From Escherichia coli (GTDB taxonomy: Bacteria > Pseudomonadota > Gammaproteobacteria > Enterobacterales > Enterobacteriaceae): DNA of 64,000 bases. The notes beneath the pieces were generated by a model. That model saw nothing but the letters and a program-made list of their open reading frames with translations. It was not told the DNA's origin and made no database searches. Positions 278 through 38,882 of the stretch are shown in pieces. Positions within the stretch are counted from its first letter, which is position 1, and each line of letters opens with the position of its first letter. The translations under genes and the position numbers were made by a program. The stretch is from assembly GCF_001677475.2 (NCBI RefSeq), contig NZ_CP015229.1. One strand, 5' to 3'.

Positions 278-1027
278 TCAGATGGTCGAAATCAGCATTC
301 TGTGACCTTCGATATCCAGACGGCGAAAATTCATCCCATAGGCCTGCGCCAGATTTGGCGGCGTGAGCACCTCTTCTCTGCGTCCACTGGCCAGCATTTT
401 TCCACCTTTTAGCAACCACGCCCGATGCGCATGACGCAATGTGTGGTTGAGATCGTGACTGCTCATCACAATCGCCAGTCCTTGCTGACACAGCGCGCTC
501 AGAATTTTGTCTAACGCACTTTGTTGCGCAACATCAAGACTGTTCATCGGCTCATCAAGAAGCAGCAATTGGCCTGCGGGATTGGCTTGTGGTGTGATTT
601 GCAGCACCACCGCAGCAAGACGTACGCGTTGCCATTCACCGCCGGAAAGTTGATTGGTGCTACGTCCGAGTTTGTCATCAAGAGCCAGCGCCCCTGCGAC
701 ATCATTCAGTAGTTCGGTACGCGTTTTATCGTGCTGATGCAATGTCAGGTAGTGCCAGACCGGCATTGCAAACGGCGGCGTCTGCTGTTGTGAAAGATAG
801 GCGCGATGCAGCGCGAGTTTTGTTGCGGACCATGCTTCCAGTGGTTGCCCCGCGAACTGAATGCTTCCCTTACCGCTGGTCATTCCGGCCATTCGCGCCA
901 GTAAGGTACTCTTACCCGCGCCATTCGGCCCCACCAGGTGCAGGATCTCCCCAGCCCGAACCTCGCCAGAAAGCGGCCCCAGGCGGGTAGATTCCGCAAC
1001 ATCCTGTAACTGCATCACAATAGACAT
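278..1027 (-). CDS. btuD: vitamin B12 ABC transporter ATP-binding protein
   Basis: 249-aa ORF with Walker [10 protein letters not shown] and ABC signature LSGGE; btuCED synteny. Confidence 0.95.
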
Positions 1028-1578
1028 TATTTTGCCAACGCCAGTTTAATGCTTTCCATCACAATGGGATCTTCCGGCGTCATATCCGGGGAAAAACGCT
1101 GGATGACCAATCCGTCCCTGCCAACTAAAAATTTCTCAAAATTCCATAAAATATCATCAGGGTACAGCGGTGCACGACCTTTGCTGACCATACGGGCATA
1201 GAATCCGCTCTCTTCCGGCGCGACTGCGGTCGGCGCTGCGGCAATCAATTTTTGATACAGCGGATGGCGTCCTTCGCCATTAACTTCAATCTTACTGAAC
1301 ATCGGAAACGTCACCCCCCATGTGGTGGTACAGTAAGTTTTAATCTCTTCATCGCTGCCCGGTTCTTGTTCCAGAAACTGGTTGCACGGGAATCCCAGCA
1401 CCACAAAACCACGATCGGCCCAGGCTTTCTGAATATTCTCCAACTGCTCATATTGCGGCGTTAAGCCACACTTTGAGGCGACATTGACAATCAACAGCAC
1501 ATTACCAGCGTACTTCTCCAGCGTGGTCACTTCACCGTCGATATCTTTCACTACGGTCGTCAGAATGGAATCTTGCAT
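1027..1578 (-). CDS. btuE: glutathione peroxidase-like thioredoxin peroxidase
   Basis: 183-aa ORF, GPx-family sequence, overlaps btuD start (operon). Confidence 0.95.
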
Positions 1579-1640
1579 CGTTTCTCCTGGGTGTGGTCAG
1601 TAAAAATCTTAGCTTTTAATCATAGACCGTCTTTTTGCGG

Positions 1641-2621
1641 CTAACGTCCTGCTTTTAACAATAACCAGATAAACACCGGCGCACCTAACGTTGCGGTGAC
1701 CACGCCAATAGGCAGCTCTGCGGCAGCTAATGCCAGGCGCGCTACAACATCGGCCAGCAGCAATGCGCTCGCCCCTGCCAGCGCGCAGCCTGGAAGTAAT
1801 ACGCGATGATCGGTTAAACCACACAGCCGGAGAATATGTGGGATCACCAGACCAATAAAGCCGATAGCACCCGCCAGCGCCACACTGACGCCAACCATCC
1901 AGCCGGTCACTGCGACCAACACATTGCGCCAGAACCACAGGGGTAAACCCAGTTGCCGCGCCGAGATCTCGCCAAGTGCTAACATATTCATCGGCCTGGA
2001 CTGACAACAGATCCACAACAACACGGGGATCAATGCCAGCATCAGCCAGCTTTGCCGCCAGTCTACGCCGCCAAAACCGCCCATCATCCAGTACATCAGC
2101 TGACGCAAATCAACAGAGGTGGAAAAGTAGATAGCCCACGTCATTAGTGCGCTACAGATAATCCCTAATGCAACGCCAGCCAGCAATAACCGACTGGTCG
2201 AAAGATGACGACGGGCGAAACGTAAGAGTATTAAAGTGATGATAAGCGCGCCAGCAATCGCACACAGCCCCAGCGCCCAGTTGGGGAGTTGCCCTTGCCC
2301 AAGCAATACCGCGGCGATAAGCCCCACGCCTGCGCCATTAGAGACGCCAAGTAGTCCAGGTTCTGCCAGAGGATTTTCAAACAACGCCTGCATTACTGCG
2401 CCGGATATAGCCAGCGCCGCACCAACCAGCAATACAGCCAGCGTACGTGGCAGGCGAATTTGCCAGACGAACAGTTCGCCACGAGGAGTAAACCAGTCAC
2501 CTGGCGAGATCCATTGTTCACCGGCGCAAAGGCTTAAGAGAAGCGCCAGCAGCATCAAAACTGACAGGCATAATAACCAGCGAATATTTTGTCGCTGTTG
2601 TTGGCGGGCAAGTGTCAGCAT
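1641..2621 (-). CDS. btuC: vitamin B12 ABC transporter permease
   Basis: 326-aa polytopic membrane ORF; FecCD-type permease; synteny. Confidence 0.95.
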
Positions 2622-2679
2622 GGTATCCGTTCTGCTGAAGTGTCATGGCGTTGATTTTACGGTGACTCTTCGACAGTGA

Positions 2680-2704
2680 AAAGAAAAAAGGCCGCAGAGC
2701 GGCC
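2680..2704. repeat. attL core: 25-bp direct repeat aaagaaaaaaggccgcagagcggcc (copy of the ihfA terminator stem)
   Basis: Exact 25-bp identity with 39479-39503. Confidence 0.85.
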
Positions 2705-2793
2705 ATAAACACAAACAAAAATCAATAAGTTAGATAATTATCAAAGACTTACAGACACACAAAAACACAGCAAACCACAACAAATAACATAGA

Positions 2794-2813
2794 TGTGGTC
2801 AATTTGTGGATCA
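2794..2813. promoter_or_regulatory. putative integrase arm-type binding sites (tgtggtca / tgtggatca direct repeats)
   Basis: TGTGGNCA-like repeats adjacent to att core, matching tgtggaca near attR (39423-39430). Confidence 0.4.
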
Positions 2814-3344
2814 TCATCCAACAAATTTAGCAACAAATACAGCAACCGCCGCCGTGAAAATGGTTGTGCATACTGGCACAATAATGCCACTCCAACGCCA
2901 CTTCGTATTATCATCAACCTTGTCAAACCGCCGATTCATCTCATCCATAATCTTGTCAAAGCGTTTATCCATCGCTTCGGTAAGCTCACCCTTCAGGCTG
3001 TTAATGTCTGATTTGAGCTGCTCTTTCAGGTTAGCTGTATCAGATTTAAGCTCACCTTTCAGATTCGCAATATCGCATTTAAGATCACCTTTCAGATTCG
3101 CAATGTCTGCTTTGAGCTCACCTTTAACCTCACCAACATCGGCTTTGGTTGAGAGGTTTGTAGTGCGTTCAGCAAGCGTCGCAAGGTCGTTTCTTGTTAG
3201 CGATAAATCACCTTCGAGCCGCTCAATTCGCCTTTCAAGTTTATCTGACATTCCGCCTCCACTATCACCGCCTCCCCCACCGAAAGAGTTGCCAATGTCC
3301 TCACGAATAAGGGTTATGCCATGCTCACTTTTAGCATATGCCAC
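2814..3344 (-). CDS. hypothetical tail-anchored membrane protein with Gly-rich linker and five 11-residue coiled-coil repeats (prophage cargo)
   Basis: 176-aa ORF; repeats KADIANLKGDL/KCDIANLKGEL...; C-terminal hydrophobic helix IIVPVCTTIFTAAVAVFVAKFV; start abuts stop of upstream ORF. Confidence 0.6.
   Translation of the reverse strand: MAYAKSEHGITLIREDIGNSFGGGGGDSGGGMSDKLERRIERLEGDLSLTRNDLATLAERTTNLSTKADVGEVKGELKADIANLKGDLKCDIANLKGELKSDTANLKEQLKSDINSLKGELTEAMDKRFDKIMDEMNRRFDKVDDNTKWRWSGIIVPVCTTIFTAAVAVFVAKFVG
3000..3135. repeat. tandem ~33-bp coding repeats (about 4 copies) inside the cargo membrane-protein gene
   Basis: Repeated ...agctcacctttcagattcgcaat... units visible in the sequence. 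Confidence 0.7.
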
Positions 3345-3758
3345 TCAGATTCCCTCCCAAACTATATATCCTTTGTCTCTTGCCCAACAAACAACTGTGT
3401 GGGCTGTATATGTGGATGTGAAGCCGCAATAAGAACATGACACTTCATACCGAGTATTGTAGATGTTAATGGGCTCGTTCTCCTTGTGTATGGGAGTGAC
3501 ATATTCCCAATCATTTGAATCATCATAATCATCAAGTTCAGGGTCTGTGCCGTGAACAACCGTATGTGGAATAAACAAATCTAGGCGCCCACACGAGAGA
3601 CAAGAGGTTCTGGCTCCTCTATCTTTAAGGAATTGAATAAATAATTTGGGCGAAATCTGTTGCAGAACCTGCAAATGCCCACGTTCATTATCATTAAGAG
3701 ACCTGTCTGCATATGGAAAATCATCAAATTTAAGAGGCTTCATATAAGGCATCTCCAA
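3345..3758 (-). CDS. hypothetical Cys-rich protein (two CxxC motifs, possible zinc ribbon), prophage cargo
   Basis: 137-aa ORF immediately downstream of int, overlapping the int 3' end and followed without gap by the 176-aa ORF; start may be an internal Met (about 3743). Confidence 0.55.
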   Translation of the reverse strand: MEMPYMKPLKFDDFPYADRSLNDNERGHLQVLQQISPKLFIQFLKDRGARTSCLSCGRLDLFIPHTVVHGTDPELDDYDDSNDWEYVTPIHKENEPINIYNTRYEVSCSYCGFTSTYTAHTVVCWARDKGYIVWEGI

Positions 3759-4722
3759 GGGGATTAAATCTCACCGCATCCTGCAGGTAATCCGGCGCAA
3801 GATGGGCATAAATCATCGTTGTCTGAATCTTTGCGTGCCCCAGAATTTTCTGGAGCGTCAGAATATTGCCGCCGTTCATCATGAAATGACTGGCGAAGGT
3901 GTGGCGCAGCGCATGAACAGCCTGGCCGTCAGGAACATCAGGTGCGACCGTTTTGATGACATCGCGAACCAATGGATAATCCAGCGTCGGAAACACCAGT
4001 TTCCCGCCCCGTTTTTTGATCTTTTCAAACAGGCTTTCAGAAATAGGAACGGTACGGTTTTTGCTGTTCTTCGTTTTTGAAAAAGTGATTCGACAATGAA
4101 GAACACGGCGCTGCTCCAGTGCCGCTACCTCGCCCCATCGCGCCCCGGTCGACAGAAGGATTTCGACAGCCAGCCGTTCATCGGGATTTTCAGCCAGTGC
4201 ATCCAGCAACTGAACACATTCAGACTTACTCAGATATCCCATTTCGCGCTCGTTAACCTTCATTCCTTTAAGGCCTTGAACGGGGTTATCGTTAAGAAAA
4301 TGGCCGGATGAGATGAGTGCGGTAAACATCGCGCTTAACGCCCCAATCTCTCGATTTATGGTGCTGGGCTGTATCCCCTGCTCTATCCTGGACACACGTA
4401 GCTCGGTGAGCATCGTTGTATTAAGTTTATGCACGCACGGGTCATCCATTGCCTCACTCAAGCGCAGCAATTTAAGGCGCGTGTTATGCCCTGACTTCAT
4501 TAGCTGGCCGTGGTATTTCCACCACAAGTCAATAAGCACCGACAGCGGACGGCGATCAATGGAGTTTCCTTTCCACTCATTGTTATGCTGTTGCGCCAGC
4601 ACCCACCGCTCATATAAAACTGCATCCGATTTCGTTTTAAATTTTTTGCGAATGCGTTTGCCTTTACGCCCCTCCGGGCGCATGTCAAGAAGATACCCTC
4701 CCGGAATTGATTTTATGCTCAT
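3730..4722 (-). CDS. int: tyrosine integrase, P2 Int-like
   Basis: N-terminus MSIKSIPGGYLLDMRPEGRKGKRIRKKF... resembles P2 Int; C-terminal HxxR...Y catalytic region (HALRHTFASH...MIYAHL); start chosen at Met 51 of the longer ORF. Confidence 0.9.
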   Translation of the reverse strand: MSIKSIPGGYLLDMRPEGRKGKRIRKKFKTKSDAVLYERWVLAQQHNNEWKGNSIDRRPLSVLIDLWWKYHGQLMKSGHNTRLKLLRLSEAMDDPCVHKLNTTMLTELRVSRIEQGIQPSTINREIGALSAMFTALISSGHFLNDNPVQGLKGMKVNEREMGYLSKSECVQLLDALAENPDERLAVEILLSTGARWGEVAALEQRRVLHCRITFSKTKNSKNRTVPISESLFEKIKKRGGKLVFPTLDYPLVRDVIKTVAPDVPDGQAVHALRHTFASHFMMNGGNILTLQKILGHAKIQTTMIYAHLAPDYLQDAVRFNPLGDALYEAS

Positions 4723-4771
4723 TCGTGAAACCCCAGCGTTACAAGACCACCATGCCCCCAGCGCTCCATGA

Positions 4772-5083
4772 TTAGCCGGGCTGTGTGCCAGTCTTGCGGG
4801 GTTTTTGAGAAGGCGATGTGCTTTTTGGCCCATCAGGGGAGAGAGACGGACTGATCTGCCCAGCAGCCTCATTTGTTTCGTTACTCATCAACCACGTGGT
4901 GTATTTTTTAAAGTTCGGATGCATTGTGATTTTCAGTAAAACCTCCGTCCCCACACCTCTAATACCAGTCTCATATTGCTTAACTGTACCAACCGCAATA
5001 CCTATTGAATCCGCGAACTTTGCCTGGCTAAGTCCCTCAGATTCTCGAATTGCTTTTAGCTTCTTTGATATCTCTATTGACAT
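4772..5083 (-). CDS. C: immunity repressor, P2 C-like (HTH)
   Basis: 103-aa ORF upstream of int, divergent from cox; HTH and C-terminal tail resemble P2 C. Confidence 0.8.
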   Translation of the reverse strand: MSIEISKKLKAIRESEGLSQAKFADSIGIAVGTVKQYETGIRGVGTEVLLKITMHPNFKKYTTWLMSNETNEAAGQISPSLSPDGPKSTSPSQKPRKTGTQPG

Positions 5084-5178
5084 GGTGTGCACCTGAATAC
5101 TATATTGGTTATCAGTTGAGTACCACTTGACGCCACAAAAAGCCACAAATAGCACCAGATTGAATAGGTTATCACATC
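5084..5178. promoter_or_regulatory. lysis-lysogeny switch region (divergent Pc/Pe promoters and operator repeats)
   Basis: 95-bp gap between divergent C and cox; ggttatca direct repeats and a TTGACG -35-like hexamer. Confidence 0.5.
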
Positions 5179-5457
5179 ATGGCAAAAGTCCTGAACACAT
5201 ACGAACAAGCGGATTTTGAGCGTTTGGCGGCGTTCTACCCATACCGTGATGAGCATGGGTTACCTGTGCTTGAAGAAAGCCTGGAAGATTACGCGAAACG
5301 CACGAATCAAAGCATTCTTGCGGTAAGAAGGCAGGCCGACAGATCAGTAATCCCCGTCACCCAAGAAGGAAGAAACACAAAACGCAAAGTAAACCTTTTC
5401 GCAATATTCCTGAAAACCATCAGGAGCGCAGAGAAATACGTGCAGATGACAAAATAA
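5179..5457 (+). CDS. cox: Cox/Apl-like excisionase and transcriptional regulator
   Basis: 92-aa first gene of the early operon, divergent from C; size and position as P2 Cox. Confidence 0.7.
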   Translation: MAKVLNTYEQADFERLAAFYPYRDEHGLPVLEESLEDYAKRTNQSILAVRRQADRSVIPVTQEGRNTKRKVNLFAIFLKTIRSAEKYVQMTK

Positions 5458-36109: not shown

Positions 36110-36266
36110 AGCTTCAGCCCCTTGTATCCGTTAAATGATTCGGCAACAATCATCACCCACCACGCGCGTAATCTCACCCCTGCGCCGTTCTCCCGCCACG
36201 GCGACAACAAAAAGCAGTAATCCCCTCCGCACGCACATGCGACCATGCCGCACAGGGAGGGAACAG

Positions 36267-37376
36267 ATGACCGACACCACCATGCAATTGCTCAGTCAGG
36301 GCACAGACCCCGTGAAAATGCCGGATTTTGATATTCTCGCGGAGGGTAAAACGCTGTCAGGCGTGGCAGAGCGCCTGATGAGCCTGTCACTGACCGACAA
36401 CCGGGGATTTGAGGCGGACCAGCTCACCATCACGCTGGATGATGCGGATGGTCAGTTGCAGCTACCGCCACGGGGCGTGCGCCTGACGGTTCTCATTGGC
36501 TGGAAAGGAGAACCGCTGACAGAAAAAGGCACTTACATTGTTGATGAAATCGCTCACGAAGGACCGCCGGACAGGCTGACTGTTTCAGCCAGAAGCGCAG
36601 ATTTTCGGGATGAATTTAACGTTAAACGTGAGGTGTCCTGGCATGATGTGACCGTTGAGCGTGTGGTATCCGCCATCGCTCATCGGTACGGTCTGAAACC
36701 GCAAATCAGCGAAATGCTGATGGATATCGAAATCGACCACGCCGACCAGACCGAAGAAAGCGACATGTCCTTCCTTACGCGCATGGCGGAAATGCTGGGC
36801 GCAATCACCACGGTAAAAAGCGGCAATCTGTTATTCATCATGCCAGGTGGTGGCGTGAACGCACAGGGCCAGCCGTTGCCATCGTTCGCCATCACACGCA
36901 GCAGCGGCGATCGCCATCAGTTCCGCATTGCTGACCGCGAGGCGTATACGGGGGTGCGCGCCTACTGGCTTGATCTTAACTATGGGAAAAAGAAAAAAGT
37001 CAGCGTGAAACGCCGCAAACCACCCAAACCGAAAAAGGAGAAAAGCAGCAGCCGCGAAGGTGACTATATGGAAGGTGCGGAAGGCAACGTGTTTGTGTTA
37101 CGCAAGACTTATCAGAACGAGCAGGCAGCAAGACGCGCAGCGGCGGCAAAGTGGCAGCAGCTACAACGCGGAGCCGCATCATTTTCCATCACGCTGGCAC
37201 GTGGACGCGCAGAACTCTACCCCGAAATGCATGGCACAGTAACAGGATTTAAAAGCGAGATTGATAATCAGGACTGGATTATTGCAAAAGCCGAGCACAC
37301 CATTGATAACAGCGGCTTTACCACGCAGCTTGAGCTTGAGGCAAAAATCCCGGAATGGATAGCAGAAACAGAGTGA
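36267..37376 (+). CDS. D: tail protein / late control protein, P2 gpD-like
   Basis: 369 aa; MSLSLTDNRGFEADQLTITLDD..., DHADQTEESDMSFLTR, GFTTQLELE match recalled P2 gpD. Confidence 0.9.
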   Translation: MTDTTMQLLSQGTDPVKMPDFDILAEGKTLSGVAERLMSLSLTDNRGFEADQLTITLDDADGQLQLPPRGVRLTVLIGWKGEPLTEKGTYIVDEIAHEGPPDRLTVSARSADFRDEFNVKREVSWHDVTVERVVSAIAHRYGLKPQISEMLMDIEIDHADQTEESDMSFLTRMAEMLGAITTVKSGNLLFIMPGGGVNAQGQPLPSFAITRSSGDRHQFRIADREAYTGVRAYWLDLNYGKKKKVSVKRRKPPKPKKEKSSSREGDYMEGAEGNVFVLRKTYQNEQAARRAAAAKWQQLQRGAASFSITLARGRAELYPEMHGTVTGFKSEIDNQDWIIAKAEHTIDNSGFTTQLELEAKIPEWIAETE

Positions 37377-37502: not shown

Positions 37503-38261
37503 ATGTTCAGTTTGTTTTCGTTAACTGCCGGAGCAAATGTGCGCTGGCATGATTTACCTGGTCAGGGTATTCCTGTTGTTTTTATTCATGGACTTGGCTG
37601 TTCCTCTTCTTATGAATATCCACGGGTTGTTGCAGATCCTGTATTTGGTGGACAACGAGCGATATTGATAGATCTCCCTGGATATGGATTCAGTGATAAG
37701 CCTAAAGGATTCGATTACAGCATATCCCATCAAGCTAAGGTTGTTATTGAAGTAGTAGAAACCTTAAATCTCTCACAGTTCCATATTTATGGTCACAGTA
37801 TGGGGGGAAGTATTGCGATTGAAGTAGCCAGACAACTACATGAGAGAACAAGAAAGCTTGTGGTTTCTGAGCCTAATTTTCACTCTGGTGGAGGTACCTA
37901 TAGCCGTAAGATAATAGAGAAGCCAGAAGCAGAGTTTATTTCGCATATATATAATGAATTACTGGAGTGTGAAACATCCCCATGGAAAGGTGAACTCCAG
38001 AATGCAGCCCCATGGGCAATATGGCGAGGAGCCAAAAGTCTGGTTGATGGAACCACTCCATCATGGCGAGATATATTCCTTAATCTGTCCTGTTCACGAA
38101 CACTAATTTTTGGCGAACAATCATTGCCAGATAATGATTTCCAGTATATAAAAGAATCAGGAATATCTGTTGCAATAGTGCCAAACGCCGGACACTCCAT
38201 GTCATGGGAAAACCCATCAGCACTGGCCGAAATTTTACACACAGAATTTTATAAAGAGTAA
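37503..38261 (+). CDS. alpha/beta-hydrolase fold protein (esterase/lipase-type), prophage cargo
   Basis: 252 aa; oxyanion HGLG, nucleophile elbow GHSMGG, C-terminal His (NAGHS); AT-rich island between D and ogr. Confidence 0.7.
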   Translation: MFSLFSLTAGANVRWHDLPGQGIPVVFIHGLGCSSSYEYPRVVADPVFGGQRAILIDLPGYGFSDKPKGFDYSISHQAKVVIEVVETLNLSQFHIYGHSMGGSIAIEVARQLHERTRKLVVSEPNFHSGGGTYSRKIIEKPEAEFISHIYNELLECETSPWKGELQNAAPWAIWRGAKSLVDGTTPSWRDIFLNLSCSRTLIFGEQSLPDNDFQYIKESGISVAIVPNAGHSMSWENPSALAEILHTEFYKE

Positions 38262-38621: not shown

Positions 38622-38882
38622 ATGTTCCGTTGTCCGCTTTGTGGCGCATCTGCCCGTATCCGCACCAGTCGTCCAGAAAATGATTCAAACACCGTACGGC
38701 AAAAGTATTACCAATGTAACAACCTGGAATGCGGCGTATGCTTCTCAACACTGGAAGCTTTCCATAAATTCACATCGAAACACGCCTCCGGCGCTCACTC
38801 TTCAGAAAGTATCCCGTGGCATGAACTGCCAGCTTCCCACAGAGGAAACAATCAGATGAGTTTGCCCTTACCTCAAAATTAA
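38622..38882 (+). CDS. ogr: late gene transcription activator, Ogr/Delta zinc-finger family
   Basis: MFRCPLCGASARIRTSR...YYQCNNLECGVCF resembles recalled P2 Ogr (CPLC...C..C). Confidence 0.85.
   Translation: MFRCPLCGASARIRTSRPENDSNTVRQKYYQCNNLECGVCFSTLEAFHKFTSKHASGAHSSESIPWHELPASHRGNNQMSLPLPQN

Follow-up and report, generated by a model that had tools for sequence, protein, structure and literature searches.

OrfA-OrfB, a conserved two-gene module at the int-att junction of a P2-like Escherichia coli prophage, and its possible role in phage exclusion

Introduction

Lysogeny operons of temperate phages are a proven source of phage-exclusion systems, as exemplified by rexAB and by the P2 and K139-type hotspots. 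What, then, is the role of two small genes found in such an operon next to the attachment site? The question is raised by a stretch of 64,000 nucleotides of Escherichia coli DNA (contig NZ_CP015229.1 of assembly GCF_001677475.2), referred to in full as the window, in which the genes named here OrfA and OrfB lie on the minus strand of a P2-like prophage, between its integrase gene and its left attachment site (attL). An earlier reading of this DNA, made from the sequence alone, had described them as an unannotated cargo cassette and had proposed an abortive-infection, superinfection-exclusion or toxin-type module. The analysis reported here shows that the two genes constitute an accessory module (a "moron") that is conserved and mobile, and that is usually located in lysogeny operons. 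What is new is a pair that is conserved, mobile and selected, and that is uncharacterised in searchable databases and papers. A role in exclusion or abortive infection is possible, and is favoured here tentatively.

Two coupled genes under purifying selection

The cassette lies where the sequence-only reading had placed it, between int (3730-4722, minus strand), encoding a P2-type tyrosine integrase, and the attL core (2680-2704), and it comprises two minus-strand open reading frames (ORFs) at 2814-3344 and 3345-3758. The downstream one, OrfB (2814-3344), encodes 176 residues from a GTG at position 3344, the product being a predicted tail-anchored coiled-coil membrane protein of the DUF1640/XhlA-like type. 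The upstream frame is open from a TTG at 3758, and a length of 137 residues had been proposed for its product. Because every close homologue of OrfA has 132 residues, the ATG at 3743 (MKPLKF) is the likely start rather than TTG 3758, so that OrfA would cover 3345-3743 and comprise 132 residues. The two CxxC motifs assigned to this protein, CLSC and CSYC, are both present in the shorter form.

The tight packing of the genes and their overlap with int, also part of the earlier description, were recovered as well. OrfA begins with an ATG that overlaps the int stop by 14 nt, with a GGAG 9 nt upstream; no base separates the TGA of OrfA from the GTG of OrfB, which has a GGGAGGG 8 nt before it. As judged from these junctions, OrfA and OrfB are shown to be translationally coupled.

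The ratio of nonsynonymous to synonymous substitution rates (dN/dS, Nei-Gojobori method) was computed between the window and three E. coli variants. It amounts to 0.16-0.32 for OrfA, 0.20-0.34 for the part of OrfB that follows its glycine-rich linker, and 0.47-0.55 for the OrfB N-terminal tail together with the linker. Compared with a Klebsiella homologue, OrfB after the linker gives 0.14, synonymous sites being saturated elsewhere. As dN/dS is below 1 for each of them, OrfA and OrfB are under purifying selection and are real coding genes. Spurious ORFs are ruled out by these values (0.14-0.34, and ~0.5 for the OrfB tail), by the 126 clusters of the OrfA family and by its invariant cysteines, both detailed below.

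Recurrence of the pair in phages and prophages

A search for homologous pairs at the int-att junctions of other P2-like prophages, proposed along with the original description, was positive in Klebsiella, Yersinia and E. coli. The loci surveyed came from phage records, RefSeq E. coli genomes, IMG/VR, and metagenome or genome contigs, and the gene following each OrfA homologue was inspected. An OrfB-type ORF of 98-193 residues starts -17 to +3 nt from the OrfA stop in 52 of the 54 fetched loci; in the other two, the available sequence ends just 16 and 331 bases past OrfA. One short metagenomic contig (L055) holds OrfA without a partner. The partner ORFs share a common architecture. A variable N-terminal peptide of ~20-35 residues and a Gly/Asp-rich linker precede a helix with invariant R, L and E residues (RxxxLE), which is followed by a coiled coil, in which an ATK(A)D motif is frequent, and by a C-terminal transmembrane (TM) segment. 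There are three exceptions: L054 is devoid of both linker and RxxxLE, L018 of the linker, and L050 of the TM segment. Classified by sequence, the pairs represent ~19 distinct lineages, counting the later-fetched L054, L056, SPN3UB and ST101-KPC2phi6.1.

The genomic contexts of the pair are diverse. The P2-like order C-int-OrfA-OrfB-att, C being the repressor gene, occurs in Klebsiella (51% and 40% identity), Yersinia and E. coli, including loci L002, L004, L005 and L016, and at some P2-like loci the pair faces ogr/D across attP. Another E. coli P2/186-like prophage (L007) displays the order C-OrfA-OrfB-x-int. In two unrelated lambdoid elements, ENT1 and L056, OrfA and OrfB follow a cI gene of the S24 peptidase type, which is exactly the cI-downstream position of rexAB in lambda. 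Other occurrences, in a Photorhabdus phage and in the Salmonella phage SPN3UB, are in accessory regions next to tail genes. In SPN3UB (L058, NC_019545.1, 3459-4128) the two genes are annotated as gp24 and gp25; an Arc/Ant immunity-like region adjoins them, and the tape-measure gene lies downstream. At the Photorhabdus locus (L009), a 149-residue protein with N-terminal hydrophobic segments, for which no Pfam hit was recorded, is encoded at 2421-2870, directly upstream of the pair, and may be a third accessory gene at this locus.

A remnant was identified at the btuC-ihfA locus of another enterobacterium (L012/L013, 3300-4228), where OrfA (120 residues) and OrfB (122 residues) are intact beside a decayed 3' fragment of int. 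The OrfA of this remnant is present in at least 24 contigs, with the same neighbourhood in 11 places, the int fragment having been examined in L012 only. The orientation of this pair relative to ihfA is inverted as compared with the window. The window-type OrfB is present at the DNA level in 38 of 5,426 complete E. coli genomes, always beside btuC in the records inspected.

OrfA, a predicted zinc-ribbon protein

The OrfA product is soluble and acidic. It matches phrog_4293 (PHROG 4293; 8e-30), a family of unknown function, and returned nothing significant in Pfam, NCBIfam or PADLOC scans; in particular, it did not match any specific zinc-ribbon Pfam family. A profile search against 1.84 billion representatives gathered an OrfA family of 126 clusters with lengths of 49-180 residues, most of them between 100 and 170, in which nearly all source names read "hypothetical protein". 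Some contig-end fragments of 69-83 residues that cluster with OrfA bear the name "tyrosine-type recombinase/integrase". Close relatives are common in Salmonella enterica (577 contigs, with serovars including Enteritidis and Blegdam) and in E. coli, and a collection holding one genome per species returned no relative when queried with the alignment of close OrfA sequences.

Residues C48, C51, C103 and C106, which form the two CxxC motifs, are invariant among 65 family members, and one tryptophan is likewise invariant across the family alignment. The AlphaFold model of OrfA has a confidence score (pLDDT) of 83, which rises above 90 when OrfA is modelled within a fusion with a deeper alignment (see below). 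It consists of two N-terminal helices, a four-stranded sheet and a C-terminal helix, and both CxxC motifs are placed at the ends of β-strands. The model thus displays two CxxC knuckles on a β-hairpin scaffold, with invariant cysteines, as in zinc ribbons, and OrfA is a predicted zinc-ribbon protein. Its fold returned no match in the PDB, and its neighbours in AFDB50, nearly all named "uncharacterized protein", belong to Enterobacterales, Aeromonas, Pseudomonas, Halomonas and Cupriavidus.

Regarding annotation, OrfA is a "hypothetical protein" in some RefSeq records and is uncalled in others. The description of the cassette as unannotated holds only in part, OrfB being named in RefSeq, usually from its internal residue Met32. 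Where OrfA is uncalled, an apparently empty gap of ~480 bp is left between int and the DUF1640 gene, for instance at 6652-7131 of L001 (NZ_CP135706.1).

OrfB, a predicted tail-anchored coiled-coil protein

All the features first reported for OrfB, namely a poly-Gly linker, about five 11-residue repeats and a C-terminal hydrophobic helix, are present. The protein starts with a variable N-terminal peptide (residues 1-21), followed by the Gly-rich linker (residues 22-31, GGGGGDSGGG), a conserved helix bearing the RxxxLE residues R39, L43 and E44, and a stalk that opens with a beta-layer-like motif, LSTKAD (residues 63-68). The repeats of the stalk, of hendecad length, are encoded by a 33-nt tandem repeat of 4.4 copies (2981-3125, minus strand). 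The TM helix covers residues ~154-172 (Kyte-Doolittle mean of 2.43 over 19 residues at residue 154) and is followed by 4 residues. Among OrfB homologues, differences in stalk length arise in the repeats and are whole multiples of 11 residues. Other lineages exhibit the motif variants FATKAD, YATKAD and FASKGD, and have 0-27 residues after the C-terminal hydrophobic helix, usually 9 or fewer.

Two alleles from IMG/VR, both of the O103 type, deviate from this layout. In L041, the Gly/Asp linker is expanded by three GGD units (GGDGGDGGDGGDGGSSGGG), in whole codons. In L050, the C-terminus differs and is non-hydrophobic, and this OrfB is probably an inactivated allele since it is devoid of the TM helix.

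The sequence-only reading had assigned neither protein to a known family. OrfA does belong to a PHROG family, although one of unknown function, as seen above; regarding OrfB, the statement was wrong. RefSeq designates OrfB as a "DUF1640 domain-containing" or "CCDC90 family" protein, and the protein belongs to phrog_9415. It gives a weak, partial match to PF07798 (CCDC90-like/DUF1640; i-Evalue 4.4e-5, 23.8 bits, model positions 68-171 out of 175), weak PHROG matches to holins and spanins, and an E value of 0.66 with PDB entry 6h9l. When OrfB-type partners were scanned singly in Pfam (E <= 1e-3), XhlA was returned for 4 of 15 lineages (best 3.8e-6) and CCDC90-like for 2 of 15; the OrfB of the window itself has no match to XhlA (PF10779) at E <= 10. 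Because its lineages match both, the OrfB family, as far as these profiles tell, is placed between the DUF1640/CCDC90-like and the XhlA groups of tail-anchored coiled-coil proteins. PADLOC reported low-scoring matches only (<= 21.6 bits), to ZorA, LmuB and other defence proteins that are long and helical; an identity of that type was set aside on account of the low scores and of the long helical nature of the proteins matched.

The stalk of the DUF1640 membrane proteins opens with a beta-layer signature, [aliphatic]-A-T-K-[polar]-[D/E], and their C-terminus holds a TM segment (Hartmann et al., PMC4786415). OrfB resembles this family (PF07798, with MCUR1, CCDC90B and homologues from prokaryotes) by its beta-layer-type motif, its coiled-coil stalk and its C-terminal anchor. 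MCUR1 and CCDC90B carry an N-terminal globular head domain before the stalk. OrfB is devoid of this head, the first ~67 positions of PF07798 being unmatched, and displays instead a 21-residue peptide on a Gly tether; unlike the family as described, it is also obligatorily paired with a predicted zinc-ribbon protein. XhlA (PF10779) is a membrane protein from the lysis cassette of Bacillus PBSX. Lysis and the release of vesicles, when induced by PBSX, require XhlA together with the holin XhlB and the endolysin XlyA (PMC5589764). Like XhlA, OrfB is a small protein whose coiled coil is N-terminal and whose TM segment is C-terminal. It differs in being Gram-negative, in having OrfA as its partner, and in its gene neighbours, which are a repressor, an integrase, att or other accessory genes rather than a holin/endolysin lysis cassette.

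A probable second start of OrfB

An in-frame, conserved ATG (Met32; 3249-3251, minus strand) directly follows the linker of OrfB, with a GGAGG located 4 nt upstream, within the Gly-linker codons. PGAP usually begins OrfB at this residue. An in-frame start directly after the linker is present in 17 of 17 loci, as ATG or, in the Aeromonas-type L011, as GTG. Of 14 independent lineages, 10 have an exact GGAGG ending 4, 7 or 10 nt upstream of this start. The enrichment of GGA is position-specific, codons -5 to -3 accounting for 11 of 23 Gly-Gly pairs, against 2 of 32 at the other linker positions (Fisher p = 7e-4). Upstream of the internal start, the frame is open to the OrfA stop in every lineage. 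Two OrfB isoforms are therefore probably made, as these conserved signals suggest: a long one with tail and tether, and a tail-less one of 145 residues.

A different view, in which tail and linker would be an untranslated spacer carrying only a Shine-Dalgarno sequence, was rejected on the grounds of this open frame in all lineages, of the Gly run being composed of in-frame GGN codons with varied third bases, of the whole-codon expansion of the linker in L041, and of the tail dN/dS of ~0.5. In the Klebsiella phage ST101-KPC2phi6.1 (L059, 3486-4137), OrfB is annotated from the internal Met only; no stop interrupts its frame between this Met and the end of OrfA, a stretch that includes a G7 run.

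The dual start recalls the S gene of phage lambda, in which S107 and S105, antiholin and holin, arise from two starts and differ by an extension of two residues. Like such genes, OrfB encodes a membrane protein and has a conserved second in-frame start with its own Shine-Dalgarno sequence. In contrast to S107/S105, the OrfB extension comprises ~30 residues plus the tether, and unlike the holin dual-start genes OrfB has a single TM segment, which is C-terminal.

Joint exchange of OrfA and the OrfB tail

Among the 38 E. coli genomes with the window-type OrfB, the match extends over at least 80% of the OrfA-OrfB query in 14, with an identity of at least 89% in 13 of these; in the other 24, including several O157:H7, O145, O103 and O26 strains, it is confined to the OrfB part. 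In the O103:H2 strain 12009, the sole OrfB-only record inspected, the int-proximal gene encodes a 166-residue paralogue of OrfA. The DNA of the window and that of the O103 strain are ~100% identical through int (from 3760 upward) and again from 3264 downward, and are unrelated over 3755-3265, a segment that corresponds to OrfA together with the OrfB tail and linker. At the protein level, identity is 27% for OrfA, 24% for the OrfB tail and 98% for the rest of OrfB. As read from this alignment, OrfA and the OrfB N-terminal peptide are inherited and exchanged as one unit, with a single breakpoint at the Gly linker. This joint exchange is taken as evidence for an interaction between OrfA and the OrfB tail.

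The contact was modelled by running AlphaFold on a single chain made of OrfA, a linker and OrfB, with an alignment of 19 paired and 52 OrfA-only rows. The region of OrfB that precedes the stalk is predicted to be disordered, except for one short strand. This strand is formed by residues 6-12 (SEHGITL), with a pLDDT of ~62-65 compared with ~43 for the linkers, and one strand of OrfA lengthens in the same model. The prediction is compatible with a docking of the OrfB tail on OrfA by strand addition.

Probable transcription with the lysogeny operon

The leftward lysogeny operon of the prophage starts with the gene of a C-type immunity repressor with a helix-turn-helix motif (4772-5080, minus strand), and continues with int, OrfA and OrfB. 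Co-transcription of the cassette with these genes had been proposed, and the sequence signals agree with it. No promoter-like site was found on the minus strand inside the cassette, and no G+C-rich terminator-like site between the repressor gene and the hairpin of the att core; one weak terminator-like site (3 G-C pairs) is present inside the 3' end of OrfB (2855-2839). As the cassette has no promoter-like site of its own and no G+C-rich terminator-like site precedes the att core, co-transcription of OrfA and OrfB with the lysogeny operon would be the simplest reading.

The attL core is a 25-bp direct repeat, AAAGAAAAAAGGCCGCAGAGCGGCC, whose second copy forms attR (39479-39503). A terminator scan indicates that, on the minus strand, this core constitutes an intrinsic terminator with a hairpin and a T-run (GGCCGCTCTGCGGCC TTTTTTCTTT, 2704-2690), which is a copy of the ihfA terminator and lies 110 nt downstream of the OrfB stop. 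The operon C-int-OrfA-OrfB thus most likely ends at the att-core terminator, and the pair would therefore be made in the lysogen.

Possible functions of the pair

The genomic position and the architecture of the pair favour a role in defence, exclusion or toxicity, and OrfA-OrfB can tentatively be regarded as a lysogen-expressed exclusion or abortive-infection module. The C-terminal helix of OrfB would anchor the protein in the inner membrane, with a stalk, probably a trimeric hendecad-type coiled coil, reaching into the cytoplasm. At the tip of the stalk, the Gly-rich tether would carry the short variable peptide that docks OrfA by β-strand addition, and the internal start located just past the tether would probably also yield tail-less OrfB. 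The pair would be expressed in lysogens from the lysogenic promoter Pc. OrfA may then act as an exchangeable sensor or regulator, and OrfB, which is XhlA/holin-accessory-like, as a membrane-acting effector that would keep other phages out or abort their infections, the ratio of long to short isoforms and the binding of OrfA setting when OrfB acts.

A close parallel is offered by rexA-rexB of lambda. Both are two-gene cassettes located directly downstream, and in the same orientation, of an immunity repressor or of a repressor-integrase pair, with an expected expression in the lysogen, and each combines a soluble protein with a membrane protein. In contrast to the polytopic RexB, OrfB has a single C-terminal TM segment and a long coiled coil. 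OrfA and OrfB displayed no sequence or fold similarity to known defence proteins, Rex not having been compared directly.

Several points weigh against a function in exclusion or abortive infection. No homology to a known defence, exclusion or toxin protein was detectable (OrfA matches 0 families of PADLOC-DB 2.0). The matches of OrfB to XhlA and DUF1640 are weak and could stem from a shared coiled-coil and TM composition. The tail-anchored, mostly cytoplasmic topology proposed for OrfB fits poorly with the periplasmic entry blocks exerted by other superinfection exclusion (Sie) proteins. Some occurrences lie outside lysogeny operons, for example in the tail-gene neighbourhoods of the Photorhabdus phage and of SPN3UB, and the transcription of the pair in the lysogen is something we infer from the sequence. 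Finally, the proposed contact between OrfA and the tail comes from a single-chain model of moderate confidence (pLDDT ~62-65).

A broader proposal, more doubtful than the exclusion role itself, is that the pair represents a new class of membrane-tethered prophage sensor-effector immunity, in which an exchangeable OrfA held on a Gly tether, a variable trimeric stalk and a two-isoform, holin-accessory-like effector would move together among P2-like, lambdoid and Mu-like phages of Enterobacterales, Aeromonas and Pseudomonas.

Among the other explanations, a toxin-antitoxin-like addiction module, in which OrfB would be a membrane toxin and OrfA its upstream, co-translated neutraliser, and which would stabilise the prophage or its remnant and need play no part against other phages, is unlikely but survives best. 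It would account for the small size and the overlap of the two genes, of which the putative neutraliser comes first, for a pair left intact beside a decayed int after loss of the remaining prophage, and for the co-variation of OrfA with the OrfB tail, as expected of a cognate binding pair. However, Pfam, NCBIfam and PADLOC report no similarity to known toxin-antitoxin families, and OrfA is acidic, with no recognisable DNA-binding domain for autoregulation. Moreover, many toxin-antitoxin systems double as abortive-infection systems, so that this explanation overlaps the exclusion or abortive-infection role and does not compete with it exclusively.

It is quite unlikely that the pair is a lysogenic-conversion scaffold, with OrfB, in the manner of its distant relatives MCUR1/CCDC90B of eukaryotes, tethering OrfA, and via OrfA a host factor, at the membrane and thereby altering host physiology but not phage sensitivity. 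The weak PF07798 match, the LSTKAD/FATKAD motif and the C-terminal TM segment are indeed DUF1640 features (PMC4786415), and the variation of stalk length in steps of 11 residues would suit a ruler; but the N-terminal part of the Pfam model, corresponding to MCUR1/CCDC90B, is unmatched, and no association with host genes was seen. In addition, the module travels with phages, and the exchange of the OrfA cassette is typical of arms-race loci.

An accessory lysis function in the lytic cycle of the phage itself, in which OrfB, with its holin-like dual start, would assist a holin as XhlA does and the timing of lysis would be tuned by OrfA, is decidedly improbable. The XhlA matches in 4 of 15 lineages and the weak PHROG holin and spanin matches point in this direction, as does the conserved internal Shine-Dalgarno sequence and start, which recalls lambda S107/S105. 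The context, in contrast, disfavours it, as the pair resides in a repressor/integrase operon or in accessory regions rather than in a lysis cassette, and it persists in a remnant devoid of lysis genes.

The probability is almost negligible that the genes encode accessory factors of integration or excision (att-arm binding, directionality control), as their position next to int and att and the predicted zinc ribbon of OrfA might suggest, or that they are spurious ORFs, as already ruled out above. OrfA is acidic, and the first role was rejected on finding the pair also away from int and att, in the lambdoid cI-OrfA-OrfB order and in tail-gene neighbourhoods.

The literature describes the hotspots tin/old and Z/fun of P2, the psu-int locus of P4, and a repressor-integrase hotspot in K139-like relatives of P2 (PMC9122126, PMC9519451), the latter harbouring defence genes (PMC9122126). 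Neither of these papers describes the int-att interval or the OrfA-OrfB pair, and no description of, or experiment on, the pair was found in the searchable literature. If the pair does act in defence or as a toxin, the int-att interval would be a third cargo site beside the two known P2 hotspots, and the finding would provide the first function for bacterial DUF1640/XhlA-like proteins. Otherwise, it still corrects the RefSeq annotation, in which OrfA is often missed and the OrfB start truncated.

Prophage boundaries and neighbouring genes

The left end of the window is occupied by the E. coli btuD-btuE-btuC operon (278-2621, minus strand). The prophage adjoins btuC; it measures 36.8 kb, is bracketed by the 25-bp direct repeat according to an exact repeat search, and includes genes for a replication endonuclease, gpD, ogr and tail proteins. 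To the right of the attR copy lie ihfA (39521-39820) and then pheT. Because the att repeat is itself an intrinsic terminator, the phage integrates into the ihfA terminator, which is regenerated at both ends of the prophage. The core is thereby duplicated, one copy ending ihfA and the other ending the prophage operon C-int-OrfA-OrfB, and the duplicated terminator would insulate btuC from prophage transcription.

The att arm region, from the core to the OrfB stop (2705-2813), comprises ~110 bp. Short tandem motifs are found beside the core, AAAACACAAC in 2.3 copies of 10 bp (2762-2784) and CAACAAATACAG in 2.3 copies (2819-2846), which flank and overlap the 3' end of OrfB and may be candidate arm-binding sites of the integrase or binding sites of the integration host factor.

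Near attR, a gene for a 252-residue α/β-fold hydrolase (37503-38261, plus strand) is located between gpD (36135-37376) and ogr (38622-38882). NCBIfam reports α/β hydrolase matches below cut-off only, and PADLOC none. The gpD and ogr genes are adjacent in P2, and this hydrolase gene is therefore probably a second cargo gene. Lastly, in the two E. coli genomes H1 (NZ_CP025903.1) and H9 (NZ_CP097198.1), the match to positions 2600-5200 of the window is split in two, and an insertion sequence of the IS3 family, IS1203-like in one of them, is annotated under this match.

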